DNA of 64,000 nucleotides from a virus (Duplodnaviria > Caudoviricetes): IMG/VR virus record IMGVR_UViG_3300028909_000001. The stretch is one strand, 5' to 3'. Numbering within the stretch: position 1 is the stretch's first letter; each line of letters opens with the position of its first letter. The position numbers and the translations under genes are program-made. The notes under the pieces are model-generated. The model did not search any database and had not been told where the DNA came from. It saw only the letters and a list, made by a program, of their open reading frames with translations. Positions 6,610-63,892 of this stretch are shown in pieces.

Positions 6610-6882
6610 ATGATTGCTGATATTTATGCTTTTTCTAGAGATGGATTTAGACATGATACTTTTCAAAATTTTTTAAACGGTGATTTTCATGGTGTGTTTC
6701 AGTTTGACCGGTCTACTATACCACCATATAATCTGTTTAAAGTATCAATCAATTTAGATGATTATGATATAAGTTGTGGACCTGGTGTTGTATATAATCA
6801 TACTGTCTTACATTTTAGAAAGAAAACTATAAACTCCAGACCTGCAGAAAGTGGTGAACGGAGGCTTGAACCTTATTTATGA
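6610..6882 (+). CDS. Hypothetical protein with C-terminal RxLExxL tail (ERRLEPYL)
   Basis: ORF with the shared tail; ATGA coupling to the next gene. Confidence 0.7.
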   Translation: MIADIYAFSRDGFRHDTFQNFLNGDFHGVFQFDRSTIPPYNLFKVSINLDDYDISCGPGVVYNHTVLHFRKKTINSRPAESGERRLEPYL

Positions 6883-7148
6883 ATGAATATATAGTAGGAG
6901 ATGAAGTTTCTGTAACTCTTAATTCTGGTAATCGAGTTAAAGCAAAGATTATAAGTATTGATAATGACGAGCTTGCACTAAAGTTTGTAGAGTATACAGA
7001 GCTTGTAAACATTGATGCAAGCGGTGGTTCAAGCGGTGGTTCAGGCGGTTGGCCTACTATTCATAGACACATAAATGAGGTAATCTCTTTAGTATCTAAA
7101 ACTAGAAAAGAAAATCCTTTTGATAGGAAACTGGAGTTTGATTTATGA
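6879..7148 (+). CDS. KOW/SH3-like small protein with tail (DRKLEFDL)
   Basis: MNEYIVGDEVSV N-terminus; shared tail. Confidence 0.7.
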   Translation: MNEYIVGDEVSVTLNSGNRVKAKIISIDNDELALKFVEYTELVNIDASGGSSGGSGGWPTIHRHINEVISLVSKTRKENPFDRKLEFDL

Positions 7149-7612
7149 AAATAACAAAAATAGCTAATAGATGGTATGACGAAAACAATAATAGTTGGTC
7201 TACAGAAGAACTAGCTACTCTATACTCACCTACCCTAACTAATTGTAGATGGTGTAGAGATTGTAGAGATTGTAATTATTGTTGTCTTTGTAGTGATTGT
7301 AGTAATTGTAGTAATTGTAGTGGTTGTAGTGGTTGTAGTGGTTGTAGTAATTGTTATAATTGTAATTGGTGTAGTAGTTGTGGTAGTTGTAATAGTTGTT
7401 ATAAATGTACTGATTGTAATGATTGTAGAGGTTGTAGTAATTGTAGTAGTTGTTATAGTTGTAGTTATTGTGGTAATTGTAAAGATTGTTTTCACTGCTA
7501 TTTATGTAAAATTTGTAGTAACCTTAGATTTTATGAAAAAGGATCACAATTAAATACTATTATAAGAGTGGAGGCTAATGCTTTTGACAGAAAATTAGAA
7601 ATAGACTTATGA
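7145..7612 (+). CDS. Cys-x-x repeat protein with tail (DRKLEIDL)
   Basis: Conserved head MKITKIANRWYDENNNSW...YSPTLTNC, (CxX)n repeats, tail. Confidence 0.85.
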   Translation: MKITKIANRWYDENNNSWSTEELATLYSPTLTNCRWCRDCRDCNYCCLCSDCSNCSNCSGCSGCSGCSNCYNCNWCSSCGSCNSCYKCTDCNDCRGCSNCSSCYSCSYCGNCKDCFHCYLCKICSNLRFYEKGSQLNTIIRVEANAFDRKLEIDL

Positions 7613-7914
7613 AAAAAGACACACTTGTAACATTAACCAAATTAAAACCCCTTGAAAATCCAGAGTATCCAACTCCAAATAAAGCAGACTACAGACCAGG
7701 ACAATTTAATGGAAATGTAAGTTTACCAATAGATTATACAGCTACTGGAATCTTATTAAAAGATATTGAGGTTGGAGAGCCTATTCTTATGTTCAGACAT
7801 ATTAGAAATGGGATTAAAACTCCTGGTCATTTTTCTTCTAGCCGAGTCTCTAAAATAGAAGGTAATTTGTTATACACTAATAACAGTATTTATAAAATTG
7901 AAATATTAACTTAA
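7609..7914 (+). CDS. Hypothetical phage protein
   Basis: ATGA-coupled ORF. Confidence 0.65.
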   Translation: MKKDTLVTLTKLKPLENPEYPTPNKADYRPGQFNGNVSLPIDYTATGILLKDIEVGEPILMFRHIRNGIKTPGHFSSSRVSKIEGNLLYTNNSIYKIEILT

Positions 7915-7919
7915 ACTAT

Positions 7920-8342
7920 ATGGAACAACTATATAAAAAGACAAAAAAGAACGGTAAGACTAAATATGCTAAGGTAAATTTAAAAGACTTGGCTGATAAT
8001 TTACTAGTTGATAGAATGACTCTAAGCCCAGGTCTTTGGCTGGTTAAAGAAGTTCCTAATTGTAAGTCATTAAGTTCAGTTTCTAAAGTATCTAGAATAC
8101 CGGATTACCCCTACGATTTTACTAGTATAATCATGAATCGTGACGAACTGGCCGATTTCCTCGTCAAATTTAACAATGATTATTCTAAAAAACATCCTAG
8201 CTCAGGGAATGGATGGCAAATATTTCCGAGTTATTCCGAACTAGCTGAGGCTATTTTAAATGAATTGATTAGACTGGCTGGCCTAGGATTTGGTGAAAAG
8301 CGAGAAGTACCTGTAACTAGAAAATTAGATTTAGAGTTATAA
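7920..8342 (+). CDS. Hypothetical protein with tail (TRKLDLEL)
   Basis: Paralog of 8344 (LSPGLWLVK vs LEAGIYLVK). Confidence 0.7.
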   Translation: MEQLYKKTKKNGKTKYAKVNLKDLADNLLVDRMTLSPGLWLVKEVPNCKSLSSVSKVSRIPDYPYDFTSIIMNRDELADFLVKFNNDYSKKHPSSGNGWQIFPSYSELAEAILNELIRLAGLGFGEKREVPVTRKLDLEL

Positions 8343-8343
8343 T

Positions 8344-8784
8344 ATGGCAGACCTATACTATAAAGTTGGAAAAAGATATAGAGTAGCTTTATCTGATGTA
8401 AGTGAAGGAGCTATGACAACATTTTTATCAGAAGATGGAATAAGACCTACCTTTCTAACTATAGGAAATTTGGAGGCAGGTATATATTTGGTAAAACCAC
8501 TACCTAATACTACTTTAGTGAGCATAATCTCTAAACTAGCTAAATATCCGGATAAACCTGAATTACTGGCTCAAATAAAAGTTACCCAGTCTGAAATGGA
8601 ATATTTTATTGCTGAGTATAGAAGAACTAGGATTACTAGAATAGGAACTGATACATTAAGTAATCAAGAAATAGCCAAGGTTATTTTTGATTATCTTATA
8701 GCTAAATCTGGTATTAAATTTTCGGAGAAGCCGGTTGAAAAAGTTGAACATATAGTAGAACGAAAACTAGAACTGGATTTATAA
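8344..8784 (+). CDS. Hypothetical protein with tail (ERKLELDL)
   Basis: Paralog of 7920; shared tail. Confidence 0.7.
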   Translation: MADLYYKVGKRYRVALSDVSEGAMTTFLSEDGIRPTFLTIGNLEAGIYLVKPLPNTTLVSIISKLAKYPDKPELLAQIKVTQSEMEYFIAEYRRTRITRIGTDTLSNQEIAKVIFDYLIAKSGIKFSEKPVEKVEHIVERKLELDL

Positions 8785-8794
8785 CGGGGCTATA

Positions 8795-9211
8795 GTGATA
8801 ATAGTAGCACGGAAGTTTTGCAAACTTCAGGACACAGAGCGTAACTGTGTAGTTCCAATCCGGTCTGGAAGCATTAAAGTGATGCAGAGAACTCTTAATT
8901 CTCAGAATAGGGAGCGTTACCCTAGCAGACCACCAATTAAAACGAATGATCAAATTGAACATGTAGAACTTATTACTATACCTCTGCCTATAGTACTAGA
9001 AATAGTAAAGGAGTATATAGAAGCTAAATATAATCTAACTGGTGGAGAAATATTTTTAAGAAAACAAAAAGGACCAACACCTGCTACAGGATATATGAAA
9101 CTAAATGAGCCTGAATTGTATGATTTAAAATATAGAACTGTTGCAACACAAGCTGATATACATAAAGATTTATCAGAATTGCTGGAAAGAAAGTTAGAAA
9201 TTGATTTGTAA
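8795..9211 (+). CDS. Hypothetical protein with tail (ERKLEIDL)
   Basis: Shared tail; the true start may be the ATG near 8881. Confidence 0.6.
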   Translation: MIIVARKFCKLQDTERNCVVPIRSGSIKVMQRTLNSQNRERYPSRPPIKTNDQIEHVELITIPLPIVLEIVKEYIEAKYNLTGGEIFLRKQKGPTPATGYMKLNEPELYDLKYRTVATQADIHKDLSELLERKLEIDL

Positions 9212-9217
9212 GTCATT

Positions 9218-9294: not shown

Positions 9295-9306
9295 ATTTAA
9301 TAATTT

Positions 9307-9392: not shown

Positions 9393-9404
9393 AACCAAAA
9401 CAAA

Positions 9405-9662: not shown

Positions 9663-9677
9663 TATAGTATAGTGACA

Positions 9678-10800: not shown

Positions 10801-11325
10801 ATGACAATAACTAAAAGAGACGATAGATGGTATGATGAACGAGGTAATAGTTGGAGAACAGAAGAATCAGCTACTACATACTCACTTACCCTAATTAATT
10901 GTAGAGATTGTAGTAATTGTAATAATTGTATAGGTTGTAGTAGTTGTAGTAGTTGTAGTGGTTGTAATAGTTGTAGTGGTTGTAGTACTTGTTATAATTG
11001 TAGTGGTTGTAGTGCTTGTAATATTTTTAATTATTGTCATGATTGCAGTAGTTGTTTTAATTGTTATAGTTGTACTGATTGTAGTAATTGTAGTGATTGT
11101 AATTATTGTAGTCGTTGTAGTGATTGTAGTAGTTGCAGTAATTGTATTGATTGTAATATTTGTAGTGATTGTAGTTATTGTAGTAGTTGTAGTAGTTGTA
11201 CTAACTGTAATCATTGTGAATTGTGTGGAAAATTAGTTGATCAAAAGTTTCAAGAAAAGATTAAAGACCCATTAATTAGGACAGAGTTTAATGTAGAAAA
11301 CAGGTTACTAGAACCAGACTTATAA
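10801..11325 (+). CDS. Cys-x-x repeat protein with tail (NRLLEPDL)
   Basis: Head, repeats and tail. Confidence 0.85.
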   Translation: MTITKRDDRWYDERGNSWRTEESATTYSLTLINCRDCSNCNNCIGCSSCSSCSGCNSCSGCSTCYNCSGCSACNIFNYCHDCSSCFNCYSCTDCSNCSDCNYCSRCSDCSSCSNCIDCNICSDCSYCSSCSSCTNCNHCELCGKLVDQKFQEKIKDPLIRTEFNVENRLLEPDL

Positions 11326-14006: not shown

Positions 14007-14414
14007 ATGACAATAACTAAAAGAGACGATAGATGGTATGATGAACGAGGTAATAGCTGGGATACTGAAGAAGCAGCTACTTTATACTCACCTACCCTAA
14101 CCGATTGTACTAATTGTTATAATTGTTATAGTTGTACTAATTGTAGTCATTGTAGTAGTAGTTGTATTAATTGTAAAGATTGTAGTAGTTGTAGAGATTG
14201 TTATAATTGTAGTAATTGTAGTAGTTGTAGAGATTGTTATTATTGTAGTAATTGTATTAATTGTAATAGTTGTAGAAGATGTAGTCGTTGTGATAGCTGT
14301 AGTGATTGTAGTGAGTGTATTGGTTGTAATGACTGGACTAATAATAAGAAATATGAACCAGTAATTAGACCATTTATAGATTGTAGAGATAGACTATTAG
14401 ACCCTTATTTATGA
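14007..14414 (+). CDS. Cys-x-x repeat protein with tail (DRLLDPYL)
   Basis: Head, repeats and tail. Confidence 0.85.
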   Translation: MTITKRDDRWYDERGNSWDTEEAATLYSPTLTDCTNCYNCYSCTNCSHCSSSCINCKDCSSCRDCYNCSNCSSCRDCYYCSNCINCNSCRRCSRCDSCSDCSECIGCNDWTNNKKYEPVIRPFIDCRDRLLDPYL

Positions 14415-18041: not shown

Positions 18042-18353
18042 ATGCCTACAAAAATACAAGATTGTAAAGGTTTATCTGTTTGTATTAATAATCATGTCTT
18101 CAAATCTAATGAGGTTAGATTAATACCATTTAGTGCTGCTGAAAAAGAATGTAAATGTGTTCTTTATACTGATAGTGACTATGTTATAAAAAGACGAGAG
18201 CCAGTAGATCTAGAATTTCCTGGATTTTTATTAGCTTGTCCAGTCTGTAATGTTATTCAGATAGACGGTTTTAGAAATGCCCCTACTAATTCAACACCAA
18301 TAAAAGGTGTTGATAATACAATACCTGAGAGGAGATTAGAAATAGATTTATGA
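18042..18353 (+). CDS. Hypothetical Zn-binding protein with tail (ERRLEIDL)
   Basis: CKC and CPVC; shared tail. Confidence 0.65.
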   Translation: MPTKIQDCKGLSVCINNHVFKSNEVRLIPFSAAEKECKCVLYTDSDYVIKRREPVDLEFPGFLLACPVCNVIQIDGFRNAPTNSTPIKGVDNTIPERRLEIDL

Positions 18354-19272: not shown

Positions 19273-19725
19273 ATGAAGATAACAAAACGAGAAGATAGAT
19301 GGTATGACGAAAACGGTAATAGTTGGTCTACAGAAGAACTAGCTACTAGATACTCTCCTACTCTAACCAATTGTAGTAATTGTAATAATTGTAATTATTG
19401 TAGAGATTGTAGTTATTGTAGTAGTTGTATTTATTCTAATGGTTGTAGTAGTTGTAGTGAGTGTAATGGTTGTAGGAATTCTCTTAATTGTATTAGTTGT
19501 AATTGGTGTAGTAGTTGTGGTAGTTGTAATAGTTGTATTAGTTGTAGTGTTTGTAGTCTTTGTAGAGATTGTACTTATTGTAGTAATTGTAATAATTGTA
19601 GAAAATGTGAAAATTGTTATTTCGTTAGTAGTCTTGAAAATTACGCCCCACTTCTTAAATTTGAACCATCTTCAACTAGACCAGAATTAGATATTAATGA
19701 TAGAAAACTAGAACCAGACTTATGA
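19273..19725 (+). CDS. Cys-x-x repeat protein with tail (DINDRKLEPDL)
   Basis: Head, repeats and tail. Confidence 0.85.
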   Translation: MKITKREDRWYDENGNSWSTEELATRYSPTLTNCSNCNNCNYCRDCSYCSSCIYSNGCSSCSECNGCRNSLNCISCNWCSSCGSCNSCISCSVCSLCRDCTYCSNCNNCRKCENCYFVSSLENYAPLLKFEPSSTRPELDINDRKLEPDL

Positions 19726-21541: not shown

Positions 21542-21994
21542 ATGAAACGACCTACAAGAAAAGCAACATTAGAAGATTCAGTAACGTATATTCTAGCAGA
21601 GATTAAAGAATTAGAAGCTTGTCAATATCTGCTTACGCAGATCATTTATAAACTTACTAATGATTATGCACCGGATGATACTCTTTCTGATAGTGTAGCT
21701 AAGATAACTGAAAGAATAACTCGTAAAAAGTGCAGGCTGTTTGAACAATTAGCCACAATTTCTGTTCTTAGCCCAACTGCTGAAGCTAAGTTAAAACAAA
21801 GATTAATCGATAAATTAAATAAATCTGGTTCATATTTCAGCAATTTTGTTAATCAATCTTGGACTGATATCTCTACCAACCCTGAAGAATTAAAGCAAAC
21901 TATAAAAGATCAGATGAGTAAAGCATTACAAGTAAGAGAGGATGAGGTAGATATGATAGCAGTACCTAAAAGGAAGTTAGAACCAGATCTATGA
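21542..21994 (+). CDS. Helical hypothetical protein with tail (KRKLEPDL)
   Basis: Shared tail; ATGA coupling. Confidence 0.7.
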   Translation: MKRPTRKATLEDSVTYILAEIKELEACQYLLTQIIYKLTNDYAPDDTLSDSVAKITERITRKKCRLFEQLATISVLSPTAEAKLKQRLIDKLNKSGSYFSNFVNQSWTDISTNPEELKQTIKDQMSKALQVREDEVDMIAVPKRKLEPDL

Positions 21995-22446
21995 AGATAA
22001 CTAAACGAGAAAATGATAGATGGTATGACGAAAACAATAATAGTTGGGAAACTAAAAAATTAGCTACTTTACACTCACCTACCCTAACTAATTGTAGTTG
22101 GTGTGGTGGTTGTAGAGATTGTAGAGATTGTAGAGATTGTAGAGATTGTAGAGATTGTAGTAATTGTAGTGATTGTAGTAATTGTAGTTGGTGTGGTGGT
22201 TGTAGTTATTGTATTTGTTGTAATCAGTGTATAAGTTGTAGTTATTGTAGTGGTTGTAGTAATTGTAGTTATTGTAGTCATTGTAATAATTGTAGTGATT
22301 GTGGTTATTGTCATTATTGTAGAAAATGTGAAAATTGTTATCTCGTTAGTAGTCTTGAAAATTACGCCCCACTTCTTAAATTTGAACCATCTTCAACTAG
22401 ACCAGAATTAGATATTAATGATAGAAAACTAGAACCAGATCTATGA
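21991..22446 (+). CDS. Cys-x-x repeat protein with tail (DINDRKLEPDL)
   Basis: Head, repeats and tail; 3' end nearly identical to 19273. Confidence 0.85.
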   Translation: MKITKRENDRWYDENNNSWETKKLATLHSPTLTNCSWCGGCRDCRDCRDCRDCRDCSNCSDCSNCSWCGGCSYCICCNQCISCSYCSGCSNCSYCSHCNNCSDCGYCHYCRKCENCYLVSSLENYAPLLKFEPSSTRPELDINDRKLEPDL

Positions 22447-22817
22447 AGATAACTAAACGAGAAAATGATAGATGGTATGACGAAAACAATAATAGCTGGG
22501 ATAGTGAAGAACTAGCTACTTTCTATTCACCTACCCTAACTACTTGTAGTTATTGTAGTGGTTGTAGTTATTGTAGTAATTGTAGTAGTTGTAGAGATTG
22601 TAGTTATTGTAATCTTTGTAATGATTGTACTCGTTGTACTAATTGTGATTATTGTGATAATTGTAGTCATTGTGGTTATTGTAGTGATTGTAGTGATTGT
22701 TTAGGTTTATATAATTATCGAGATAAAGAAAATTTAGAACCTCAAGTAAGAATATTACCTCCAACATCAAGAATAGAATTAGATATTAATGATAGGAAAT
22801 TAGAACCAGACTTATGA
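22443..22817 (+). CDS. Cys-x-x repeat protein with tail (DINDRKLEPDL)
   Basis: Tandem paralog. Confidence 0.85.
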   Translation: MKITKRENDRWYDENNNSWDSEELATFYSPTLTTCSYCSGCSYCSNCSSCRDCSYCNLCNDCTRCTNCDYCDNCSHCGYCSDCSDCLGLYNYRDKENLEPQVRILPPTSRIELDINDRKLEPDL

Positions 22818-26038: not shown

Positions 26039-26083
26039 TTCTACATAATAGTGATTTAATAATCGAAGACTAGACCCTTTCTT

Positions 26084-26491
26084 ATGACAATAACAAAAAT
26101 AGCTAATAGATGGTATGACGAAAACAATAATAGCTGGTTATCAGAAGAAGCAGCTACTCAATACTCACTTACCCTAACTAATTGTAGTAGGTGTAGTGAT
26201 TGTAGTAATTGTATTGATTGTAGAGATTGTAGTAATTGGTGTAGTAATTGTAATAATTGTAGAGATTGTAGTTATTGTATATATTGTAGTGATTGTAGTT
26301 ATTGTATATATTGTATTGATTGTAATATTTGTAGTGATTGTAGTAGTTGTATTAATTGTAGTAATTGTAGTGATTGTAGAGATTGTAGTAGTTGTATTGA
26401 TTGTAGTGATTGTACTAATAATAAGAAGTATGAACCAGTAACTAGACCATTTATAGACTGTACTAACAGACTATTAGAACCAGATTTATGA
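26084..26491 (+). CDS. Cys-x-x repeat protein with tail (TNRLLEPDL)
   Basis: Head, repeats and tail. Confidence 0.85.
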   Translation: MTITKIANRWYDENNNSWLSEEAATQYSLTLTNCSRCSDCSNCIDCRDCSNWCSNCNNCRDCSYCIYCSDCSYCIYCIDCNICSDCSSCINCSNCSDCRDCSSCIDCSDCTNNKKYEPVTRPFIDCTNRLLEPDL

Positions 26492-26736
26492 CAAATATCA
26501 CAGTACGAGATAAATATGACCAATCTATAGAAGTAGGAAATAATGTTATAGTAAAGTATTATGGCAGTATTTATAAAGGAACTGTCATTAATATTAAACT
26601 AATAAATAGTACTGGGACTAGTACCAGTGATTTTTGTGCTCATTTAAGAGATTATTGGATTAAAGTTATCATCCATTCACCTATTAGAGGAGATAAAGAG
26701 ATAACTAGTAAATCAGGAGAAATAATAAGAATATGA
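26488..26736 (+). CDS. KOW/SH3-like small protein (no tail)
   Basis: IEVGNNVIVKYYGSIYKGTV. Confidence 0.55.
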   Translation: MTNITVRDKYDQSIEVGNNVIVKYYGSIYKGTVINIKLINSTGTSTSDFCAHLRDYWIKVIIHSPIRGDKEITSKSGEIIRI

Positions 26737-27005
26737 AATATAATCTAGTTCAAATTCGTAGTCATATAAAGAATCAACTTCGTGTTTCCTTTGAAGAAAT
26801 TGAAATAGAAGGTGAAGTAATAGAAATCAGTTCACCAATGAATACTGGATTTTATTATTGCCTGGCTAAAAGAGGCAAGAAATATGCTTTTGATAGATTA
26901 AAGAAACATTTAATAAAAATGTATGATAAAGAAATTACAAAGATAACAAAAGAGTTAGACATGCTTAAAGCCGTAGAATATCCACATCGAAAAATAAGAC
27001 ATTAA
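26733..27005 (+). CDS. Hypothetical protein whose tail lies out of frame
   Basis: DINDRKLEPDL* is encoded at 26998-27033 in the +1 frame. Confidence 0.6.
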   Translation: MKYNLVQIRSHIKNQLRVSFEEIEIEGEVIEISSPMNTGFYYCLAKRGKKYAFDRLKKHLIKMYDKEITKITKELDMLKAVEYPHRKIRH

Positions 27006-27029
27006 TGATAGAAAGTTGGAACCAGACTT

Positions 27030-27461
27030 ATGACAATAACAAAAAGAGCTGATAGATGGTATGACGAAAACGGTAATAGTTGGATAACTGAAGAACTAGC
27101 TACTACTGACTCTCCTACCCTAACTAATTGTTATAATTGTAGAGGTTGTAGTAATTGTAGAGATTGTAGTTATTGTATATATTGTAGTGATTGTAGTAAT
27201 TGTATTAGTTGTATTAGTTGTAGTGATTGTAGTAATTGTAGTAATTGTTATAGTTGTATTGATTGTAGTAATTGTAGTGATTGTTATAGTTGTAGAGATT
27301 GTAGTAGTTGTATTGATTGTAGTAGTTGTAGTGGTTGTAGAGATTGTAGTAATTGTAATAATTGTATTTATTGTAGTGATTGTACTAATAATAAGAAGTA
27401 TGAACCAGTAACTAGACCATTTATAGACTGTACTAACAGACTATTAGAACCAGATTTATGA
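27030..27461 (+). CDS. Cys-x-x repeat protein with tail (TNRLLEPDL)
   Basis: Last 92 nt identical to those of 26084. Confidence 0.85.
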   Translation: MTITKRADRWYDENGNSWITEELATTDSPTLTNCYNCRGCSNCRDCSYCIYCSDCSNCISCISCSDCSNCSNCYSCIDCSNCSDCYSCRDCSSCIDCSSCSGCRDCSNCNNCIYCSDCTNNKKYEPVTRPFIDCTNRLLEPDL

Positions 27462-28303
27462 AAGCACATTGGATCATAGAAAATTTTACAGATTCGGAGG
27501 ATTACAGGGATTTAATTAAAGCAGTAAAAGATTTAGGCAAGGAATGCTTTGTAATAGATAAACGTAATCATTTTGATTTTAATCCTGCCTCATTTGTGGA
27601 AAATGAATGTGTAATAGTTCAAGGGTCAATTCAAATGGTTAAGAATATAGAATCTAGGTTACCTAAAAATTGCTTTCCCATCAAATATTGCACCTTCAAC
27701 AATTATCTTTGCTCGGTTTACTATCCTAAATTAAAAGACTTCCTATTTAATGATAAGTATGTATTACTTCCGCTAAAAGAACTTAAAGAGAATAAGTTTG
27801 ATTATTATCAGAAGTTTGGAAAAGAAGCACTTATATTTGTAAGACCGGATAGTGGAGAAAAGACATTTCAAGCCCAACTCTTAGATTTGCAGGATTTCGA
27901 CAGATTTTGGACTAACTCTATAGCTTCCAGTACTTTAGATGATGATTTAGTACTAGTTTCTACGCCTAAAGATATAATAGGTGAGTGGCGTTTTATATGT
28001 TCAAAGTATAACGATGGGGAAATCATAACTCAATCTACTTATCGATATCAAGGCAAGTTATGTTATATACCTGCTGCACCTGTTAAAGCAACTGAACTTT
28101 GTAAAAATATATTAAAGGTTCAATATTACCCAGACTCTGTTTTTTGCATAGATATCTGCCAGGCTGGGGATAACAAGTTCTATTTATTAGAATTAACCTC
28201 CTTTTCTAGTGCTGGTCTATATGCTACCGATAAAAAGAAGATAGCAACTAGAGTAAGTGAAATAACCGAATTTGAATATGGAAGAGAAATATTCTATAGG
28301 TGA
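27458..28303 (+). CDS. ATP-grasp domain protein (R2K/DUF4343-like)
   Basis: FVRPDSGEKTF, EWRFIC and IDIC..GDNKFYLLELTSFSSAGLY. Confidence 0.75.
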   Translation: MKAHWIIENFTDSEDYRDLIKAVKDLGKECFVIDKRNHFDFNPASFVENECVIVQGSIQMVKNIESRLPKNCFPIKYCTFNNYLCSVYYPKLKDFLFNDKYVLLPLKELKENKFDYYQKFGKEALIFVRPDSGEKTFQAQLLDLQDFDRFWTNSIASSTLDDDLVLVSTPKDIIGEWRFICSKYNDGEIITQSTYRYQGKLCYIPAAPVKATELCKNILKVQYYPDSVFCIDICQAGDNKFYLLELTSFSSAGLYATDKKKIATRVSEITEFEYGREIFYR

Positions 28304-28520
28304 TCTTGTTGAATTATTAAATTTAGGTGAAGGGGAGATCGTCTCTATAAAAAACACTTATTATCATATGAGAATGTTGAATCATGTATCTATTGGTAAA
28401 CGTGATTTAGATCCGGGAGATATACTTAATGTGTGGCCTGACGAAATAGTAAAAAAGATAGTAATTCTAAGACCTGATTATAGTAACTTAGATGAAAGAA
28501 GAATTGATATTGAATTATGA
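28272..28520 (+). CDS. KOW/SH3-like small protein with tail (ERRIDIEL)
   Basis: YSIGDLVEL; tail variant. Confidence 0.65.
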   Translation: MNMEEKYSIGDLVELLNLGEGEIVSIKNTYYHMRMLNHVSIGKRDLDPGDILNVWPDEIVKKIVILRPDYSNLDERRIDIEL

Positions 28521-28765
28521 ATGATTATAAGGTAGGTGATGTGATTGAGGCTTTTTATGTAGCATCTATTTATTGTACAGGTAAAATAGTAGAATTTAAG
28601 TTTAAGGGAGTTCTCATACGTATACTAGAAGACATGAATTACAATGATATAATATGTTATCCTAGTAATACACAGTTATTTCTCCCATTTGAAAATATCA
28701 TAGGGTTTAGTCAACTTATTAGAACAGAAAACATATATGAACGAAACCTTGACCCATATTTATAA
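28517..28765 (+). CDS. KOW/SH3-like small protein with tail (ERNLDPYL)
   Basis: MNDYKVGDVI. Confidence 0.7.
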   Translation: MNDYKVGDVIEAFYVASIYCTGKIVEFKFKGVLIRILEDMNYNDIICYPSNTQLFLPFENIIGFSQLIRTENIYERNLDPYL

Positions 28766-29003
28766 TATAGGTGATGAAGTTAGTGGGAATTATGCACAAT
28801 TAGCTGAGTTTAAAGGATTTATAGTATCATATAAATTTTATTTCAATAAACCTTGGTATTATGTACAGCTAACTGAACGCATATTTATACACAAAGAATT
28901 ACCTATAGGTTGGATCATAGCTGTTTCAGAGATGGAAATTAAGGAAGTTAAAAAATTAAGAAAAGAAAACATATATGAGCGAAACCTTGACCCATATTTA
29001 TAA
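28737..29003 (+). CDS. KOW/SH3-like small protein with tail (ERNLDPYL)
   Basis: YNIGDEV; 29-nt overlap with the previous gene. Confidence 0.65.
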   Translation: MNETLTHIYNIGDEVSGNYAQLAEFKGFIVSYKFYFNKPWYYVQLTERIFIHKELPIGWIIAVSEMEIKEVKKLRKENIYERNLDPYL

Positions 29004-29193
29004 TATAGGTGATGAGGTGGCATTTTATAGAGGTACTCATAGGTTTGAAGGTAGAATAATAAATAGCGCAGCATTTCATGATCATTGGTGTGTTCAATTA
29101 TTGAACTCTAAATTTATGTCAGTACATAAACAATGTTGTAATAAAATTAGAAAAGAAAATCCTTTAGATAGGAAACTAGAGCTTGATTTATGA
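28975..29193 (+). CDS. KOW/SH3-like small protein with tail (DRKLELDL)
   Basis: YNIGDEV; 29-nt overlap with the previous gene. Confidence 0.65.
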   Translation: MSETLTHIYNIGDEVAFYRGTHRFEGRIINSAAFHDHWCVQLLNSKFMSVHKQCCNKIRKENPLDRKLELDL

Positions 29194-29747
29194 CAATAAC
29201 TAAAAGAGATAATAGATGGTTTGACGAAAACAATAATAGCTGGGATAGTGAAGAAGAAGCTACTCTATACTCACCTACCCTAACCGATTGTACTAGTTGT
29301 TTTAATTGTTATAGTTGTATTGATTGTAGTAGTTGTATTGATTGTAGAGATTGTAGTAGTTGTATTGATTGTAGTAATTGTAGAGATTGTACTAGTTGTG
29401 ATAGTTGTAGTGGTTGCATTGATTGTAGTGGTTGTGTTGATTGTAGAGATTGTAGTGGTTGTAGTGGTTGTATTTATTGTATATATTGTAGTGATTGTAG
29501 TGAGTGTTATGGATGTAGAGATTGTAGTAATTGTAGTAATTGTTATAGTTGTATTGATTGTAGTAATTGTAGTGATTGTAGAGATTGTAATAATTGTAGA
29601 GATTGTAGTAGTTGTATTGATTGTAGAGATTGTAGTTATTGTAGTAGTTGTATTGGTTGTAATGACTGGACTAATAACATGAAATATGAACCGGTAATTA
29701 GACCATTTATAGACTGTACTAACAGACTATTAGAACCAGACTTATGA
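29190..29747 (+). CDS. Cys-x-x repeat protein with tail (TNRLLEPDL), longest repeat tract
   Basis: Head, repeats and tail. Confidence 0.85.
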   Translation: MTITKRDNRWFDENNNSWDSEEEATLYSPTLTDCTSCFNCYSCIDCSSCIDCRDCSSCIDCSNCRDCTSCDSCSGCIDCSGCVDCRDCSGCSGCIYCIYCSDCSECYGCRDCSNCSNCYSCIDCSNCSDCRDCNNCRDCSSCIDCRDCSYCSSCIGCNDWTNNMKYEPVIRPFIDCTNRLLEPDL

Positions 29748-29986
29748 CACAAAAGGAATATAAAGTAGGAGATGTGGTTGATTTTGAGGTTAGTAATTTG
29801 AAAGGAATAGGAACTATAACACCATATAATGGAGACATAATGTATGCTGTAATTATAGAGGAATTTCCCGGTATACCTAGTAGAACTAAATGGCATATAT
29901 TTCCTGATGAAATAACAGGTATACATGTTGAACCTAGAATAGAATTTGACATCACAAAAGATAGAAGATTAGAGTTAGAACTATGA
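29744..29986 (+). CDS. KOW/SH3-like small protein with tail (DRRLELEL)
   Basis: EYKVGDVVDF. Confidence 0.7.
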   Translation: MTQKEYKVGDVVDFEVSNLKGIGTITPYNGDIMYAVIIEEFPGIPSRTKWHIFPDEITGIHVEPRIEFDITKDRRLELEL

Positions 29987-30237
29987 ATGAATTTGAAGAA
30001 GGAATGAAAGTTATAGTTACTTTTTATAGCGGTAATAAAGCTGTAGGAATAATAATATGGTATGCTGATGATACTTCCTATGAAGTTGAAGTCTTGCATT
30101 ATACAGAAATTAATGATAAAGAGAAAACGGTGGAGACATTTCCAAATCCTTATAGTAACATTAACTTCATAAATACCGAAGCAATACCAAGTAGAACAGA
30201 GAATCCTTTTGATAGAAAATTGGAACCAGATCTATGA
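29983..30237 (+). CDS. KOW/SH3-like small protein with tail (DRKLEPDL)
   Basis: Paralog of 6879 (VTFYSGNKA...ENPFDRKLE). Confidence 0.7.
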   Translation: MNEFEEGMKVIVTFYSGNKAVGIIIWYADDTSYEVEVLHYTEINDKEKTVETFPNPYSNINFINTEAIPSRTENPFDRKLEPDL

Positions 30238-30485
30238 GTGAATATAAAGTAGGAGATGTTGTAGTTTATTGGTCTATTAGTTCTAACTCAGAGGCAGTTG
30301 CTAAGATAGTCGAAACCGATTGGACTAGTTTTAATTATTTAAGGGTAATTATAATAAAACATGATCATCTTAGTGCAGGTACATCAATTTATTTAACAGA
30401 GAGTGAAATAATAAGATTGGACGGTCCCATTATAAAACACTGTTTTGATATTATGTTAGATAGAAGATTAGATTTGGAACTATAA
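30234..30485 (+). CDS. KOW/SH3-like small protein with tail (DRRLDLEL)
   Basis: MSEYKVGDVV. Confidence 0.7.
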   Translation: MSEYKVGDVVVYWSISSNSEAVAKIVETDWTSFNYLRVIIIKHDHLSAGTSIYLTESEIIRLDGPIIKHCFDIMLDRRLDLEL

Positions 30486-31328: not shown

Positions 31329-31652
31329 ATGACAATAACAAAAAGAGCTGATAGATGGTATGACGAACGAGGTAATAGTTGGTTATCAGAAGAATTAGCT
31401 ACTTTATACTCACCTACCTTAACTAATTGTAGTTATTGTGATGATTGTAGTAATTGTAGAAATTGTAGTAGTTGTAGTAATTGTAGTAGTTGTAGAGATT
31501 GTATTAGTTGTTATGATTGTAACGATTGTAAATATGTCTGTTGCCTGACAGACAGAACAAGATTTACTGCTCAATTCGAACCTGCTACAGAAGATACTAT
31601 AATAAGACCTGAACTTGACATTAATAATAGAAGACTTGAAATTGAACTATGA
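31329..31652 (+). CDS. Cys-x-x repeat protein with tail (DINNRRLEIEL)
   Basis: Head, repeats and tail. Confidence 0.85.
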   Translation: MTITKRADRWYDERGNSWLSEELATLYSPTLTNCSYCDDCSNCRNCSSCSNCSSCRDCISCYDCNDCKYVCCLTDRTRFTAQFEPATEDTIIRPELDINNRRLEIEL

Positions 31653-31915
31653 ATGAATTTAATATAGGTGACATTATTTCTGTAACATTTACTTTTTCTG
31701 GTAATCAAGCTATTGGTGTTGTAATTGACGATGATAATTTTATGATCACGTCTTATACTAAAGTACTTAAACCAGACTATGTAGTTAAAGGTTTATCAGA
31801 CCGTGAACCTCTTTATGGATGTAATATAAGGAATATTCAACTAGTATCACGGAGTATTAGACAAGAAGTTAGACAAGAAGACCCATTTTCCCGTAACCTA
31901 GACCCATATCTATGA
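31649..31915 (+). CDS. KOW/SH3-like small protein with tail (SRNLDPYL)
   Basis: MNEFNIGDIISV. Confidence 0.7.
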   Translation: MNEFNIGDIISVTFTFSGNQAIGVVIDDDNFMITSYTKVLKPDYVVKGLSDREPLYGCNIRNIQLVSRSIRQEVRQEDPFSRNLDPYL

Positions 31916-32968: not shown

Positions 32969-33301
32969 ATGAAACTAACAAAACGAGAAAATGATAGATT
33001 CTATGATGAAAACAATAATAGTTGGATAACAGAACAACTAGCTACTGTATATTCACCTACGCTGATTAATTGTAGATATTGTAGTGATTGTAGTAATTGT
33101 AGTAATTGTAGTAGTTGTATTAGTTGTTATATATGTGTTAATTGTAGTAATTGTAGTGAGTGTTATAGATGTAGAGATTGTATTAGTTTGTATAGACATT
33201 ACAACGAAGAAAAATTAAAACCTCAGAAGTATGACACTGAAGATACTATAATAAGACCTGAACTTGACATTAATAATAGAAGACTTGAAATTGAACTATG
33301 A
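32969..33301 (+). CDS. Cys-x-x repeat protein with tail (DINNRRLEIEL)
   Basis: Tail DNA shared with 31329. Confidence 0.85.
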   Translation: MKLTKRENDRFYDENNNSWITEQLATVYSPTLINCRYCSDCSNCSNCSSCISCYICVNCSNCSECYRCRDCISLYRHYNEEKLKPQKYDTEDTIIRPELDINNRRLEIEL

Positions 33302-36998: not shown

Positions 36999-37372
36999 GT
37001 ACTATATTAAAGAGTGAATATCTTTATAATGATAATGATAATCATGATAAAGTATATAATGTGACGCTAAAAGAAGTGGAAGGACAAATCACAACAGGTA
37101 CAGTTATTGATTTTGTAGTTACTGCCGAATATGGTAGGAGAGGTTCGGTTTTAAAGACCATAACTAAATATGATGGCATTAGCTATGGTAAAGCTAAAGA
37201 AATTTATACATCTTTAATAGCAGAAAAAATAGCCAAAGGTTACAATAAAGGACCTAAAAGAAAGAAGGTCAAATCCGAACCTGAATTGAAACCTAAACTG
37301 AAACCAAAGAAGTTGGAAACCCAGGAGCTAAACGATGTACCTTTTAGAAGATTAGACTTTGGTGACTTATGA
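36974..37372 (+). CDS. WGR domain protein with tail variant (RRLDFGDL)
   Basis: DKVYNV...AEYGRRG...KIAKGY. Confidence 0.75.
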   Translation: MGILVKKMSTILKSEYLYNDNDNHDKVYNVTLKEVEGQITTGTVIDFVVTAEYGRRGSVLKTITKYDGISYGKAKEIYTSLIAEKIAKGYNKGPKRKKVKSEPELKPKLKPKKLETQELNDVPFRRLDFGDL

Positions 37373-50702: not shown

Positions 50703-50954
50703 ATGAAAAATTCTAAAATTATATTTATAGATGGACATAGGTTAGTTTTATCAGCTATAACTAATTATTATGCATATAATGAGTTTGATAGTCCATCACC
50801 TCAACCTAGAGATCTACTTAAAGCATGGTTGTATATTGGACTTACTGGTAATAAAGGTATTAATCTCAAGTATAAGGAAGGGTCAAAACGTGACCAGGCT
50901 TTAAAACAATTAGATGAAGCTTTTGAATACTATGAAAATAACAAAAAGATATAA
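50703..50954 (+). CDS. Hypothetical protein
   Basis: ORF. Confidence 0.55.
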   Translation: MKNSKIIFIDGHRLVLSAITNYYAYNEFDSPSPQPRDLLKAWLYIGLTGNKGINLKYKEGSKRDQALKQLDEAFEYYENNKKI

Positions 50955-51447
50955 TAGATGGTATGACGAAAACAATAATAGCTGGTTATCAGAAGAATTA
51001 GCTACTCTATACTCACCTACCCTAACCGGTTGTACTAGTTGTATTGATTGTGGTTGGTGTGATAATTGTAGTAGTTGTAATAATTGTAGTAATTGTAGAT
51101 ATTGCAATGATTGTATTTATTGTAAAGGTTGTAATGGTTGCTATGATTGTAGAGATTGTAATAGTTGTAATTATTGTAGAGATTGTAGAGATTGTATAAG
51201 TTGTATTACTTGTATTGGTTTCAAATCTAACCCACAAAGATTTACTTCTTCTAAAATTGGTTCTAGAAACGCTCAAACTACCATTTATTGGGTAGGAAAG
51301 AATGTTCAAGTAGATTGTGGTTGTTTTACAGGAAATTTGACTGAGTTCAAAAACAAAGTAGAAAAGACTCATAAAAACAATAAGTTTGGTAAGCAGTATA
51401 AGAAGTTAATCAATCTGGTTGAACACATTATCAAAACCAAAATCTGA
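50932..51447 (+). CDS. Cys-x-x repeat protein fused to a GSR...CGCF C-terminal domain (no tail)
   Basis: Head from the ATG at 50932; C-terminal IGSRNAQTTIYW...CGCFTGNLTEFKNKV...Y, a domain common after phage repeat proteins. Confidence 0.8.
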   Translation: MKITKRYNRWYDENNNSWLSEELATLYSPTLTGCTSCIDCGWCDNCSSCNNCSNCRYCNDCIYCKGCNGCYDCRDCNSCNYCRDCRDCISCITCIGFKSNPQRFTSSKIGSRNAQTTIYWVGKNVQVDCGCFTGNLTEFKNKVEKTHKNNKFGKQYKKLINLVEHIIKTKI

Positions 51448-59832: not shown

Positions 59833-60360
59833 ATGTTAAACAAACTCAAAGCTAAATTCATTAATTGGTTATTCAACAGTATTAAACCTGAAACTAAAGG
59901 CGCTGATATAACTTATGTAGGTAAGCATATAATTTACATAGGTAAGAGTAATGAAGTATGTAGTTTACCTACTCATCAATTTTCGGCCCAGTCTGAATTA
60001 AAAGGACTTAAAAGTAATTTAGATAGTCGTTATAGAGACGTATGTGAACTAAGATCTAATATAGAATTATTAGCAAATTCGATTAATTCTTTAAGGACAG
60101 AGATGGAATATATAAGGCAGGTAAGCAATATTATGAGAAGAGATACTGTCGTTGGAGTTCCTGCTAGCGTAGGAGGAGTACTACAAGGAATTAGAGGATC
60201 TGAAATTGTAGTTGATACTAGAAGTGTTGTTCCATCATTAAATGAAGATCCTACAAATTATACAGCCTCTCTAAGACCTACAGTAAGACCAGTAGACGAG
60301 CAATCTACTACTAGAACTATGTATTCAGATGAAGATAGAAATTTAGATCCAAATCTATGA
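59833..60360 (+). CDS. Coiled-coil protein with tail (DRNLDPNL)
   Basis: Shared tail; ATGA coupling. Confidence 0.7.
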   Translation: MLNKLKAKFINWLFNSIKPETKGADITYVGKHIIYIGKSNEVCSLPTHQFSAQSELKGLKSNLDSRYRDVCELRSNIELLANSINSLRTEMEYIRQVSNIMRRDTVVGVPASVGGVLQGIRGSEIVVDTRSVVPSLNEDPTNYTASLRPTVRPVDEQSTTRTMYSDEDRNLDPNL

Positions 60361-60728
60361 CAATAATTAAAAGAAATAATAGATACTTTGATGAAAACAA
60401 TAATAGTTGGATAACTGAAGAAGAAGCTACTCAATACTCACCTACCCTAACTAATTGTAGTAGTTGTAGAGATTGTAGTTATTGTAGAGAGTGTAGAGAT
60501 TGTAGAGATTGTAGTCGTTGTAGTTGGTGTAATGATTGTATTGCGTGTATTAATTGTTATGATTGTAGTAATTGCAGAGATTGTTATGCTTGTCATGCTT
60601 GTAGAAGTTGCATACATTGCGCTAATTATTTAAATAAAATAAACCTAGAACCCCAAGAAATTGTTCGTGAATCAACTTTAAGAGAAGAATTTGACCCGGC
60701 CCAGAGACTTTTAGAACCAGACTTATGA
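60357..60728 (+). CDS. Cys-x-x repeat protein with tail (QRLLEPDL)
   Basis: Head, repeats and tail. Confidence 0.85.
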   Translation: MTIIKRNNRYFDENNNSWITEEEATQYSPTLTNCSSCRDCSYCRECRDCRDCSRCSWCNDCIACINCYDCSNCRDCYACHACRSCIHCANYLNKINLEPQEIVRESTLREEFDPAQRLLEPDL

Positions 60729-61792: not shown

Positions 61793-62245
61793 ATGACAAT
61801 AACAAAAATAAACAATAGATGGTATGACGAAAACAATAATAGCTGGTTATCAGAAGAAGCAGCTACTCAATACTCACCTACCCTAACTAATTGTAGAGAT
61901 TGTAGAGGTTGTAGTAATTGTGATGATTGTAGTTATTGTGATGATTGTAGTAATTGTAGTGGTTGTAGTACTTGTAGAGGTTGTATTAGTTGTAGTGTTT
62001 GTAGTGTTTGTAGTGATTGTAGTAGTTGTAGTAGTTGTAGTGGTTGTAATAGTTGTAGTGGTTGTAGTACTTGTTATAATTGTAGTGGTTGTAATAGTTG
62101 TAGTAGTTGGTGTGATCATTGTATTAATTGTAATAATTGTAGTAGTTGTAGTGGTTGTAATGACTGGACTAATAACATGAAATATGAACCGGTAATTAGA
62201 CCATTTATAGACTGTACTAACAGACTATTAGAACCAGACTTATGA
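61793..62245 (+). CDS. Cys-x-x repeat protein with tail (TNRLLEPDL)
   Basis: Last 94 nt identical to those of 29190. Confidence 0.85.
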   Translation: MTITKINNRWYDENNNSWLSEEAATQYSPTLTNCRDCRGCSNCDDCSYCDDCSNCSGCSTCRGCISCSVCSVCSDCSSCSSCSGCNSCSGCSTCYNCSGCNSCSSWCDHCINCNNCSSCSGCNDWTNNMKYEPVIRPFIDCTNRLLEPDL

Positions 62246-62495
62246 ACAATCCAAACATATCAATAGTTATAGCTAAAAATATAGTAAATGGTAATACTAT
62301 AACCTCAGAATTTAAGCTTAAACCTGAAGAAACAGCTATTATAACTGAACCAGATCACCTAGAATTTACAAACTTCATACCTAATGAAACAGTATTCATG
62401 GAAGCTGATATGAATTTAAGGATGATGAATTCCTTCCTAGAAAAGATTAAAATTTTACCAACTAAACAAAGTATTAATATAAAAATGATAAATAT

Positions 62496-62816
62496 ATGAA
62501 TTATTTCCTCATCGTAGCCAAACCTACCAAAGAGCTAGTCCCACTTAGTATTATAAAAGATTTGTTTGATGGATTTAGTGGATCTACAAATATTTCAAAG
62601 GTATTGGACGAATCAACCGTATATATTAGAATTTCGAGTAAAGAATCACTAAAGAAGGTGGAACTTGATAATAATGATACAGTCTATTTAGCTGCTAAAG
62701 TAGATTCCACTTATTATAAAGTAATAGATAAAGATGATTTTGAATTAGCTACACAGATTTATGCTGAGCTTAAATTGAATAAATGTAGAATACACCCTAA
62801 AATATTGTTTATATGA
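62496..62816 (+). CDS. Hypothetical protein
   Basis: Coupled ORF. Confidence 0.55.
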   Translation: MNYFLIVAKPTKELVPLSIIKDLFDGFSGSTNISKVLDESTVYIRISSKESLKKVELDNNDTVYLAAKVDSTYYKVIDKDDFELATQIYAELKLNKCRIHPKILFI

Positions 62817-63292
62817 CTTTCCTAGAACAATGCTTCCAAGACCATAATAGTACAATAGTTAAAATTAATATAGATTTAGTTAATAGATTGGTTCAAATAT
62901 GGAATACTAATAATACTTATTCTAATTTAACTTTTGGTGGGATAGAACAAAAAAATAACAATAAATTAAAAGTAGGTCAATGTAGAGACATTAACATCTA
63001 TTTAGAGATTCCAATAATAAGTTCTCTTCTATATTTTGAGTTTGATAGATTAACCTATAATTACCACTATTTTAGTCCTGGTTCGGAATATATAGAAGTT
63101 GATAATAGTCTGATTAAAATACAAAGGTCGATTGTACATTATAGTAGTGTTATTCCAGCATTGATCCGAAAAGCAAAAGATATTGAAAAGAAGAAGAAAC
63201 ATTATGCTAAACTAACTACCAGAAGCATAAAAACAGCTCAGCAAGAACTCAAGAATTTCCAGGATGCTATTAAACCAAAAACCAAAAAGTAA
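62813..63292 (+). CDS. Hypothetical protein
   Basis: Coupled ORF. Confidence 0.55.
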   Translation: MTFLEQCFQDHNSTIVKINIDLVNRLVQIWNTNNTYSNLTFGGIEQKNNNKLKVGQCRDINIYLEIPIISSLLYFEFDRLTYNYHYFSPGSEYIEVDNSLIKIQRSIVHYSSVIPALIRKAKDIEKKKKHYAKLTTRSIKTAQQELKNFQDAIKPKTKK

Positions 63293-63325
63293 ACAACCAA
63301 ACCAACAAACCAACAAACTAATATT

Positions 63326-63613
63326 ATGCCTATATCACCATTACCAGCCCTAGTCTCTGACCCTAAAGATGCCATTCTTTGGGCAGTTTTAAATCAATTA
63401 GAGAATATCGATGACACTACCGGTACTAGAATGGCTTTTGCAACTAGTGTAGCTTATAACATTCACTTAGGTCTGGATCGTCCTATATTTGAAGATATTA
63501 TTAGAGAAATTAGAACTGTACTCAAGGTTCCAGAGCCGGTTATCAGTGAAGTTGAAGAACCAGGAACTATGCGGGCTGATATAACTGAATTCGATACTAT
63601 GCGTGACCTTTAA
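63326..63613 (+). CDS. Hypothetical protein
   Basis: ORF with an AAAC-rich leader. Confidence 0.6.
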   Translation: MPISPLPALVSDPKDAILWAVLNQLENIDDTTGTRMAFATSVAYNIHLGLDRPIFEDIIREIRTVLKVPEPVISEVEEPGTMRADITEFDTMRDL

Positions 63614-63625
63614 TTAAGAAGTAGT

Positions 63626-63892
63626 ATGAAAACTTATGACTATAAAGTAATACTAATAAATCATGATGGTTGTAATGATTGCTACAATTGTAGTGATTGT
63701 ATTGATTGTTGGGATTGTAGTGGTTGTAATGATTGTAATAATTGTAGTAATGGTATTAATTGTAGTGATTGTGAAGGACTTTATAATTTTATAAATAAGA
63801 AAAATTGGTCAGCGCAACCTAGCATTGATACAACAAATGAAAAACGACCTATCTTAGACATTAATGATAGAAATCTAGACCCTTTCTTATGA
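63626..63892 (+). CDS. Headless Cys-x-x repeat protein with tail (DINDRNLDPFL)
   Basis: Repeats and tail with a different N-terminus. Confidence 0.8.
   Translation: MKTYDYKVILINHDGCNDCYNCSDCIDCWDCSGCNDCNNCSNGINCSDCEGLYNFINKKNWSAQPSIDTTNEKRPILDINDRNLDPFL

Follow-up and report, generated by a model that had tools for sequence, protein, structure and literature searches.

Shared C-terminal docking peptides organize replisomes, as seen with clamp-binding motifs, the tip of the single-stranded DNA-binding protein (SSB) and the tails of phage T7 proteins. The bacterial clamp motif and the PIP box of archaea and eukaryotes are carried by many proteins of DNA metabolism, including an AAA+ clamp-loader subunit in archaea. 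In T7, gp2.5 and gp4 have similar C-terminal tails with a hydrophobic last residue, and these bind the same polymerase site in a PolA-type replisome. In phage T4, the hydrophobic-acidic C-termini of gp43, gp33 and gp55 are interchangeable and bind one clamp, gp45 (PMC2988020). Here, we analyze a C-terminal peptide, R-x-[LI]-[ED]-x-x-L directly before the stop codon, in a 64,000-nucleotide stretch (the window) of the Caudoviricetes virus record IMGVR_UViG_3300028909_000001, an uncultivated jumbo phage. We lean toward the reading that this tail is a short linear docking peptide for one hub of a DNA-metabolism module and that about 45 accessory proteins have captured it. The window encodes 31 of these carriers; the others were seen in part in pieces of DNA from relatives (L002, L005 and L004).

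The tail motif and selection on the peptide

The initial annotation listed 31 open reading frames (ORFs) that share the motif at their C-termini. Translated from the listed starts (72 to 185 aa), all 31 do end in R-x-[LI]-[ED]-x-x-L-stop, and the tail is present on about one quarter of the approximately 131 genes of the window. A six-frame regular-expression scan of the window gave 36 matches to the seven residues on the plus strand, 34 of them directly before a stop codon, and one match on the minus strand with no adjoining stop. The 34 stop-adjacent matches comprise the 31 ORFs, two short remnants that lie outside ORFs behind in-frame stops, and one chance match at 40709, in an alternative frame of an adenylosuccinate synthetase gene. 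From the amino acid composition of the window, 0.01 C-terminal and 1.4 internal matches would be expected by chance; we observed a single internal match, at 32392. Because 34 of 36 plus-strand matches adjoin a stop, against an expectation of 0.01, the C-terminal position is nonrandom. The weaker versions that had been noted on two larger proteins were also found: a WGR-domain protein (36974) ends in RRLDFGDL and a vWA-like protein (41576) ends in PRRFDDL.

The core that all carriers share is the last seven residues only. In two large families the motif reaches upstream to about 16 residues, as [IT]-R-x-E-...-[DN]-R-x-L-[ED]-x-x-L. With the last residue numbered 0, the hydrophobic pattern is L at -4, P, I, L or F at -2 and L at 0, and the C-terminal triplet is [PILF]-[DEYFN]-L. 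At -1, D or E is commonest; Tyr stands at this penultimate position in only 5 of the 31 ORF tails, so the tails do not fit the proteasomal HbYX docking motif.

This pattern bears on the suggestion that the tail is a binding motif for the host sliding clamp, DnaN, through which the proteins would be tethered to it. In R-x-L-x-Φ-x-L-COOH (Φ, hydrophobic), positions -4, -2 and 0 are hydrophobic, a spacing that resembles the hexapeptide clamp motif QLxLxL, and DNA-metabolism proteins of the clade described below bear the tail. However, the defining Gln is never found at -5, where all 34 tails have K, R, N, L or G. The acidic -3 and the Pro at -2 are untypical, and lineages with a short form of the tail (RRIEV) do not fit. 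The clamp-like C-terminus proposed earlier was thus not borne out beyond its spaced hydrophobic residues, and we regard DnaN binding as improbable.

Selection on the tail was measured in 36 pairs of window genes and their best matches in close relatives. The ratio of nonsynonymous to synonymous divergence (pN/pS) was 1.42 for the bodies of the genes but fell to 0.48 for residues -8 to -16 and to 0.12 for the core of seven codons. Within the Cys-repeat family of carriers alone, paralog pairs included, it was 0.24 for the tail versus 1.14 for the body. Ortholog pairs outside this family had two synonymous and no nonsynonymous changes in the core, these pairs being too similar to give pN/pS any power. 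As had been noted, the codons vary: the Arg position uses AGA, AGG, CGA, CGG and CGT, Leu(-4) is encoded by five Leu codons, and the proportions of Arg and Leu codons in the tails match genome-wide usage. Paralogs of the SH3-like carriers retain the tail despite overall identities of 23 to 41%. The tail is maintained by purifying selection on its amino acids.

A signal in DNA or RNA (a ribosome-binding site [RBS], a translational coupling element or a recombination handle for cassette shuffling) would make the peptide a by-product. Consistent with such a signal, 22 of the 29 tagged genes that a greedy gene set contains close with ATGA, the two untranslated remnants are located at cassette junctions, and whole tagged genes are gained or lost between close relatives. 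However, the amino acids are fixed while synonymous sites change freely, and the motif is not a feature of other frames or of the other strand. Nucleotide conservation tied to a downstream start, as expected of a coupling or RBS element, was not found, since synonymous divergence (pS) reached 0.147 in the core, against 0.082 in the body. There are also 19 ATGA-overlapped genes without the motif. The initial annotation had counted five tagged genes that end in TAA with no overlap; TAA in fact ends eight tails, and in at least two of these cases (gene ends 9211 and 30485) no coupled gene lies close downstream. Because synonymous sites vary, ATGA-overlapped genes occur without the motif and some tagged genes are uncoupled, we rejected a DNA-level signal as the selected function and consider it extremely unlikely. 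The earlier view, which placed selection on the peptide instead of an RBS or ATGA overlap, therefore stands. Recombination at the repeated DNA of tail and N-terminus probably drives cassette turnover, as a consequence and not as the selected function.

Tails on the core DNA-metabolism proteins of a jumbo-phage clade

The recombination, ligase and nuclease genes had been thought to lack the tail. This holds for the RecA, ligase and PD-(D/E)XK nuclease genes of the window but not for an AAA ATPase, a DUF3150 protein and the 166-aa protein encoded between Mre11 and Rad50 (the spacer), which carry it in the same genome and in relatives. In relative piece L004, they end in ...DRALDPFN, ...YTRRLDFDEL and ...NRRLDMEL, respectively. 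A search with DUF3150 listed 54 homologs with 34 to 68% identity, most of them on large phage-like contigs and many on contigs of 200 to 237 kb. Almost all of those listed end in TG-x-Y-x-R-[RK]-[LI]-[DE] followed by 1 to 5 residues, the last of which is L, I or V. The tag in the window follows the same pattern, R-[RK]-[LI]-[DE] plus 1 to 5 residues ending in L, I or V. Several DUF3150 tails are identical to it over the last seven residues; the RRLDLEL of gene 30234, for example, is also the end of DUF3150 proteins P0338 and P0339. The tail is an old feature, kept on core proteins of an AAA-DUF3150-DUF1257-DUF2997-Mre11/Rad50 module in an uncultivated jumbo-phage clade. The tail of the small proteins most likely copies that of these core DNA-metabolism proteins.

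Six related neighborhoods (L020, L021, L022, L025, L026 and L027) have a common gene order, AAA(PF00004)-DUF3150-x-DUF1257-x-DUF2997-x-Mre11-x-Rad50-helicase. In each of them, the tails of other proteins match the style of the DUF3150 protein of that phage:

This genome: AAA, RALDPFN; DUF3150, RRLDFDEL; spacer, RRLDMEL
L020: AAA, RKLSLGEV; DUF3150, RRLDLSDL; spacer, RALVFGEL; 83-aa protein, RKLALEL
L027: AAA, RNVELSL; DUF3150, RRLDVGDDL; spacer, RNISFEL
L022: AAA, RRLDEKFS; DUF3150, RRLDTEGI
L021: AAA, LRHIAI; DUF3150, RRIEV; Zn-ribbon protein, LRRIEI
L025: AAA, LRSIAI; DUF3150, RRIDV; Zn-ribbon protein, LRRINL
L026: AAA, RKIKV; DUF3150, RKIDLD

Across six or seven lineages, phages with long tails have them long on all carriers and phages with short tails have them short on all. 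A shared receptor that co-evolves with the tails predicts such co-variation within lineages. By BLAST, the AAA halves and the spacer proteins are orthologous, and their alignments end short of the tail, at a variable linker of about 20 residues. The tails of the DUF3150 and AAA proteins and the tag of the small proteins would then share one receptor.

Large plasmids have this gene set as well, with AAA, DUF1257, DUF2997, DUF3150, vWA and toprim. One plasmid module has no R-R-L-D tail, and the other has a different basic motif, KRKIR[IL], near two C-termini. These belong to a DUF3150 protein and an 847-aa protein on plasmid CP114559.1 (L024, 4854-12191), where the AAA protein has QRRLRGG; the plasmid motifs may be the tail code in another dialect. 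Apart from this, a LAGLIDADG-type insert that is intein- or intron-like splits the AAA gene of the module into two or three ORFs in several phages, at 4649-6914 in L004, at 7488-10004 in L021 and around 6400-10000 in L025, L026 and L027. Another R-[LI] C-terminal pattern occurs in the replication block: a conserved protein of about 185 aa upstream of DnaB ends in [FL]D[FYL][SE]R[LI]... (L004, 17783-18340; L020, 20159-20728; L027, 19846-20340). A DUF3150 profile search of PDB sequences gave no matches, and neither did a tblastn search of cultured phages with DUF3150. The literature that we searched held no functional description of a shared C-terminal phage tag or of DUF3150, DUF1257 or DUF2997.

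Carrier families and variable islands

We clustered the carriers by BLAST after removal of the last 16 residues. They fall into about eight unrelated groups: a Cys-repeat family with 15 members, about nine SH3-like proteins in small clusters, the pair 7920/8344 and five orphans (6610, 8795, 18042, 21542 and 59833). The carriers had been described as some 31 unrelated proteins. Several unrelated groups are indeed present, but the diversity was overstated, as two paralog families account for 24 of the 31. The tailed genes, remnants and related features of the window, all on the plus strand, are as follows:

6610..6882, +, orphan 90-aa ORF, tail RRLEPYL
6879..7148, +, SH3-like 89-aa ORF, tail RKLEFDL
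7145..7612, +, Cys-repeat family, tail RKLEIDL
7920..8342, +, member of the 7920/8344 pair, tail RKLDLEL, TAA stop
8344..8784, +, member of the 7920/8344 pair, tail RKLELDL, TAA stop
8795..9211, +, orphan (putative start), tail RKLEIDL, TAA stop, not coupled to any downstream gene
10801..11325, +, Cys-repeat family, tail RLLEPDL
14007..14414, +, Cys-repeat family, tail RLLDPYL
18042..18353, +, orphan 103-aa ORF, tail RRLEIDL
19273..19725, +, Cys-repeat family, tail RKLEPDL
21542..21994, +, orphan helical 150-aa ORF, tail RKLEPDL
21991..22446, +, Cys-repeat family, tail RKLEPDL
22443..22817, +, Cys-repeat family, tail RKLEPDL, AlphaFold2 model
26055..26087, +, untranslated remnant FNNRRLDPFL-stop, ahead of ATG 26084
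26084..26491, +, Cys-repeat family, tail RLLEPDL
26998..27033, +, untranslated remnant DINDRKLEPDL-stop, ahead of ATG 27030
27030..27461, +, Cys-repeat family, tail RLLEPDL
28272..28520, +, SH3-like, tail RRIDIEL
28517..28765, +, SH3-like, tail RNLDPYL, TAA stop
28737..29003, +, SH3-like, tail RNLDPYL, TAA stop
28975..29193, +, SH3-like, tail RKLELDL
29190..29747, +, Cys-repeat family, longest at 185 aa, tail RLLEPDL
29744..29986, +, SH3-like, tail RRLELEL
29983..30237, +, SH3-like, tail RKLEPDL, AlphaFold2 model
30234..30485, +, SH3-like, tail RRLDLEL, TAA stop, not coupled to any downstream gene
31329..31652, +, Cys-repeat family, tail RRLEIEL
31649..31915, +, SH3-like, tail RNLDPYL
32969..33301, +, Cys-repeat family, tail RRLEIEL, ATGA-coupled to AAA ATPase gene
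34383..34850, +, Cys-repeat family, tail RNLEPFL, ATGA-coupled to Tad4 homolog
36974..37372, +, WGR-domain protein, long-form tail RRLDFGDL, a form as in the DUF3150 tail RRLDFDEL of this genome
41576..42523, +, vWA-like protein (phrog_2971), weak tail PRRFDDL
50914..51447, +, tail-less Cys-repeat paralog with the ancestral C-domain of about 75 aa
59833..60360, +, orphan 175-aa ORF, tail RNLDPNL
60357..60728, +, Cys-repeat family, tail RLLEPDL
61793..62245, +, Cys-repeat family, tail RLLEPDL
63626..63892, +, Cys-repeat family, short, divergent N-terminus, tail RNLDPFL

Members of the Cys-repeat family have a conserved N-domain of about 35 residues, (C-x-x)n repeats of highly variable length, a linker and the tail. 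The family is widespread in uncultivated Caudoviricetes by database search. Distant homologs and the window paralog at 50914-51447 end in a conserved C-domain of about 75 aa and not in the tail, which among Cys-repeat homologs is found only on members from this phage lineage. Because the C-domain is present in those homologs and the tail only in this lineage, the tail was acquired by domain replacement. On this comparison it is modular, and it took the place of the ancestral C-domain of the family here.

In AlphaFold2 models of the 22443 and 29983 proteins, the tails are coil, with a predicted local distance difference test score (pLDDT) of 50 to 64, behind folded domains at 75 to 85. The N-domain of the Cys-repeat protein has a pLDDT of about 85; the SH3-like protein has a small barrel at about 75 and a coil tail at about 52. 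In the ESM Atlas, sequence features of a Cys-repeat member scored 0.95 to clusters of the same family and about 0.8 to Hexapep clusters, and its structural similarity to viral hexapeptide, pentapeptide and other beta-solenoid proteins was 0.5 to 0.66 by template modeling (TM) score. The Cys repeats probably form a solenoid rod. They place a Cys at every third residue, over 9 to about 40 repeats, and the family may be a DNA-mimic or decoy rod.

A solenoid fold raises the question of whether the tail is an oligomerization module, since beta-solenoid proteins often oligomerize via their C-terminal ends. The motif of about 16 residues would then be a beta-hairpin that pairs with other tails, like a mini-foldon, in place of the dimerization or trimerization domain at the C-terminus of the solenoid. 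The extended motif does have two similar halves, R-x-E-Φ-D-Φ and, after a turn, R-x-L-E-Φ-x-L, and a C-domain was replaced in the solenoid-like family. However, just the last seven residues are common to all carriers, the five residues of the short-tail lineages (RRIEV) are too short for a hairpin, and the monomer models contain none. We consider this function hardly probable.

Searches of Pfam, PHROGs and NCBIfam gave no match for the carriers, the ESM Atlas gave none for the 7920 protein, and single-protein scans for related loci returned near relatives only. Two SH3-like genes have predicted starts, 28737 and 28975, that apparently lie 29 nt inside the preceding gene; the tail codons of that gene are read in a second frame as the next N-terminus (MNETLTHIYNIGDEV).

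Relatives of the window in IMG/VR and metagenomes are collinear with it in blocks of 95 to 100% nucleotide identity and differ from it by whole tagged genes gained or lost. One relative (L001) has about 1.35 kb with five tagged genes that are not in the window. Conversely, 26493-29424 (about 2.9 kb), which holds an R2K ATP-grasp gene together with several tagged genes, occurs in the window but not in L001 or L003; elsewhere, a relative that lacks it has about 97% identity. The remnant at 26055-26087 corresponds to the tail of a 107-aa gene, intact in L001 and missing here. Thus, the tagged arrays are strain-variable islands. They are interleaved with genes for a Tad4 homolog, a cREC domain protein, an R2K ligase and an AAA ATPase. 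The homolog of Tad4, a Type I Thoeris inhibitor, has 109 aa (34847-35176; Pfam E value, 4e-11) and is coupled by ATGA to a tagged Cys-repeat gene. This setting would fit accessory, possibly anti-defense, functions of the tagged proteins. Pattern scans of IMG/VR and JGI metagenomes for DRKLEPDL-TGA returned close relatives and one chance match, with no second independent tagged lineage.

The AAA ATPase at 33298-34278 lies inside the tagged cluster and belongs to the classical clade, with best matches to PAN, Cdc48 and FtsH. It bears on the possibility that the tail is a C-terminal degron. Such a degron would direct its carriers to a protease or AAA+ unfoldase, be it a phage AAA protein or ClpXP, Lon, FtsH or Prc of the host, either for timed removal of early proteins or as adaptors that deliver bound host targets to be destroyed. 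Hydrophobic C-terminal tails are classic as degrons and adaptor tethers, such as ssrA and the SspB XB peptide. Furthermore, two classical-clade AAA ATPases are encoded, one of them in the cluster, and the carriers are small, many and fast-evolving. However, the same tail is found clade-wide on conserved and presumably stable core proteins (DUF3150, AAA and the Mre11-Rad50 spacer), where assembly fits better. The tails also bear no likeness to the LAA type; a terminal L-A-A or small nonpolar residues were not found. The AAA family of the window has 754 representatives at E values of 1e-30 or below, is conserved from about residue 45 onward and is not specific to the tagged lineage. A degron is therefore unlikely in our judgment. 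This spread of the family, including most of the N-terminal region, also led us to disfavor the AAA ATPase as a lineage-specific reader of the tail. A complex prediction of this protein with the last 42 residues of the upstream tagged protein scored 0.00 and was counted neither for nor against.

The R2K-clade ATP-grasp gene in the cluster (27458-28303; Pfam R2K_2, 3.5e-8) raises a different possibility. RimK and TTL, members of the same superfamily, act on protein C-termini. The tail could thus be the recognition element for an enzyme that modifies C-termini, whether this ligase or a ubiquitin-like protein (Ubl)/E1 system upstream. In keeping with such a role, ligation of amino acids or peptides to proteins has been predicted for the R2K clade (PMC4431377). 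However, R2K orthologs with 65 to 70% identity were found at three jumbo-phage loci where no tag lies within 20 kb, and a close relative with many tags is missing the segment that holds the ligase gene. On both grounds, we disfavored the R2K protein as the reader of the tail and consider C-terminal modification very unlikely. Proteins with 50 to 72% identity to this ATP-grasp (R2K_2/R2K_3) occur in hundreds of metagenomic contigs, some of jumbo-phage size and one a 5.9-Mb bacterial contig.

Three other genes of the window merit mention. Homologs of the vWA-like protein occur in phages of Mycobacterium (cluster C), Rhizobium and Vibrio, with alignments that end before the tail. The adenylosuccinate synthetase homolog (40131-41573; 480 aa) matches Pfam at 1.6e-61, has a score far below the PurA cutoffs and shows a weak match to PurZ (4e-16), an enzyme known from 2-aminoadenine genomes. 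A radical SAM protein (3494-4354), upstream of the Cys-rich arrays, has weak matches to peptide or cofactor maturases and to prokaryotic viperin.

The docking reading and its likeness to known systems

The initial annotation proposed a docking tag. Docking itself gained indirect support from the replacement of the C-domain, from the unstructured modeled tail after a variable linker and from the same tail co-varying on core proteins; the receptors that were put forward with it (clamp, capsid import, scaffold and protease) did not find support. In the docking reading that we favor, an unstructured tail on a variable linker would bind one receptor through Arg(-6), Leu(-4), the acidic -3, the hydrophobic -2 and the carboxylate of the terminal Leu. 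All tails of one phage would dock at the same site on a hub that is part of, or works with, the DNA-metabolism module. By capturing the tail, some 45 small fast-evolving proteins would be recruited to the hub or would compete for it. The tagged proteins, Cys-repeat beta-solenoid-like rods and SH3-like barrels among them, may themselves be anti-defense or takeover proteins. Candidate receptors are the tail-less members of the module (DUF1257, DUF2997 and small neighbors), the replisome (PolA-type polymerase or DnaB) or a host protein.

A broader picture, which we put forward more tentatively, is a hub-and-tail code of the jumbo-phage clade, with a related module on large plasmids. Here, the core AAA, DUF3150, Mre11-Rad50 spacer, Zn-ribbon, WGR and vWA proteins would dock via a co-evolving R-x-[LI]-[DE]...Φ tail. 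One lineage would have spread this tail to about 45 hypervariable beta-solenoid and SH3-like proteins, as a plug-in library of anti-defense or takeover factors that are recruited to, or compete at, the phage DNA machinery.

Several points weigh against docking at such a hub. We infer docking itself, for its receptor we have candidates only, and any tie of the tagged small proteins to DNA metabolism is likewise putative. The window RecA, ligase and PD-(D/E)XK nuclease have no tail. With the tail on dozens of abundant small proteins, a replisome hub could become saturated, an odd arrangement except where competition is the purpose. The co-variation is drawn from six or seven lineages and from short peptides, and some of the other tails of distant phages match a loose pattern only and could be chance; chance is an unlikely source of the RRIE[VI]/LRRI pair and of the long forms. 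Finally, because all tag-bearing contigs found are close relatives, the expansion is seen in one lineage only.

The peptide, the AAA-DUF3150-DUF1257-DUF2997 module and the scale of the spread are not described in the literature searched. If the docking reading is true, the tail would give a first functional handle on a module that is conserved in many jumbo phages and large conjugative plasmids. It would also mean that a virus wires dozens of fast-evolving small proteins into one machine by copying a seven-residue peptide. That peptide would be a simple bait for the hub, as well as a sequence signature for accessory or anti-defense candidates in related metagenomic phages.

Other systems also place one short element on many proteins. 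Encapsulin cargo-loading peptides and the peroxisomal targeting signal PTS1 are short C-terminal peptides on unrelated cargo with one reader, but the core carriers here are DNA-metabolism proteins, and nothing points to a compartment or capsid destination. Poxvirus ankyrin-repeat proteins are fast-evolving paralogs whose C-terminal PRANC/F-box-like domain connects them to a common machine, PRANC binding host Skp1. They offer a model for an adaptor reading, in that a large, fast-evolving viral repeat family combines variable modules with one conserved C-terminal element. However, PRANC is a folded domain and the element here a seven-residue peptide in a prokaryotic system, and for the tag a link to degradation would be conjecture.

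Replisome peptides are more similar in kind. The bacterial beta-clamp motif (QL[SD]LF or QLxLxL) is also short, linear, often C-terminal and built on spaced hydrophobic residues, but the tag differs from it and from the PIP box in having a conserved Arg at -6 and acidic residue at -3 instead of the defining Gln. The tails of T7 gp2.5 and gp4 and the SSB tip likewise place similar hydrophobic-ended C-termini on different proteins. Theirs are strongly acidic and end in Phe, whereas the tag has a conserved Arg and dozens of carriers. T4 gp45 has three or four carriers, compared with about 45 here that are mostly small accessory proteins and not replication or transcription factors. A sequence match to the T4 epitopes is not established, and no gp45-like clamp was met in the window and the 20-kb pieces of relatives. 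The T4 arrangement is nevertheless alike in its design, with C-termini that resemble each other, hydrophobic and acidic, on unrelated phage proteins, each behind a divergent linker (PMC2988020).

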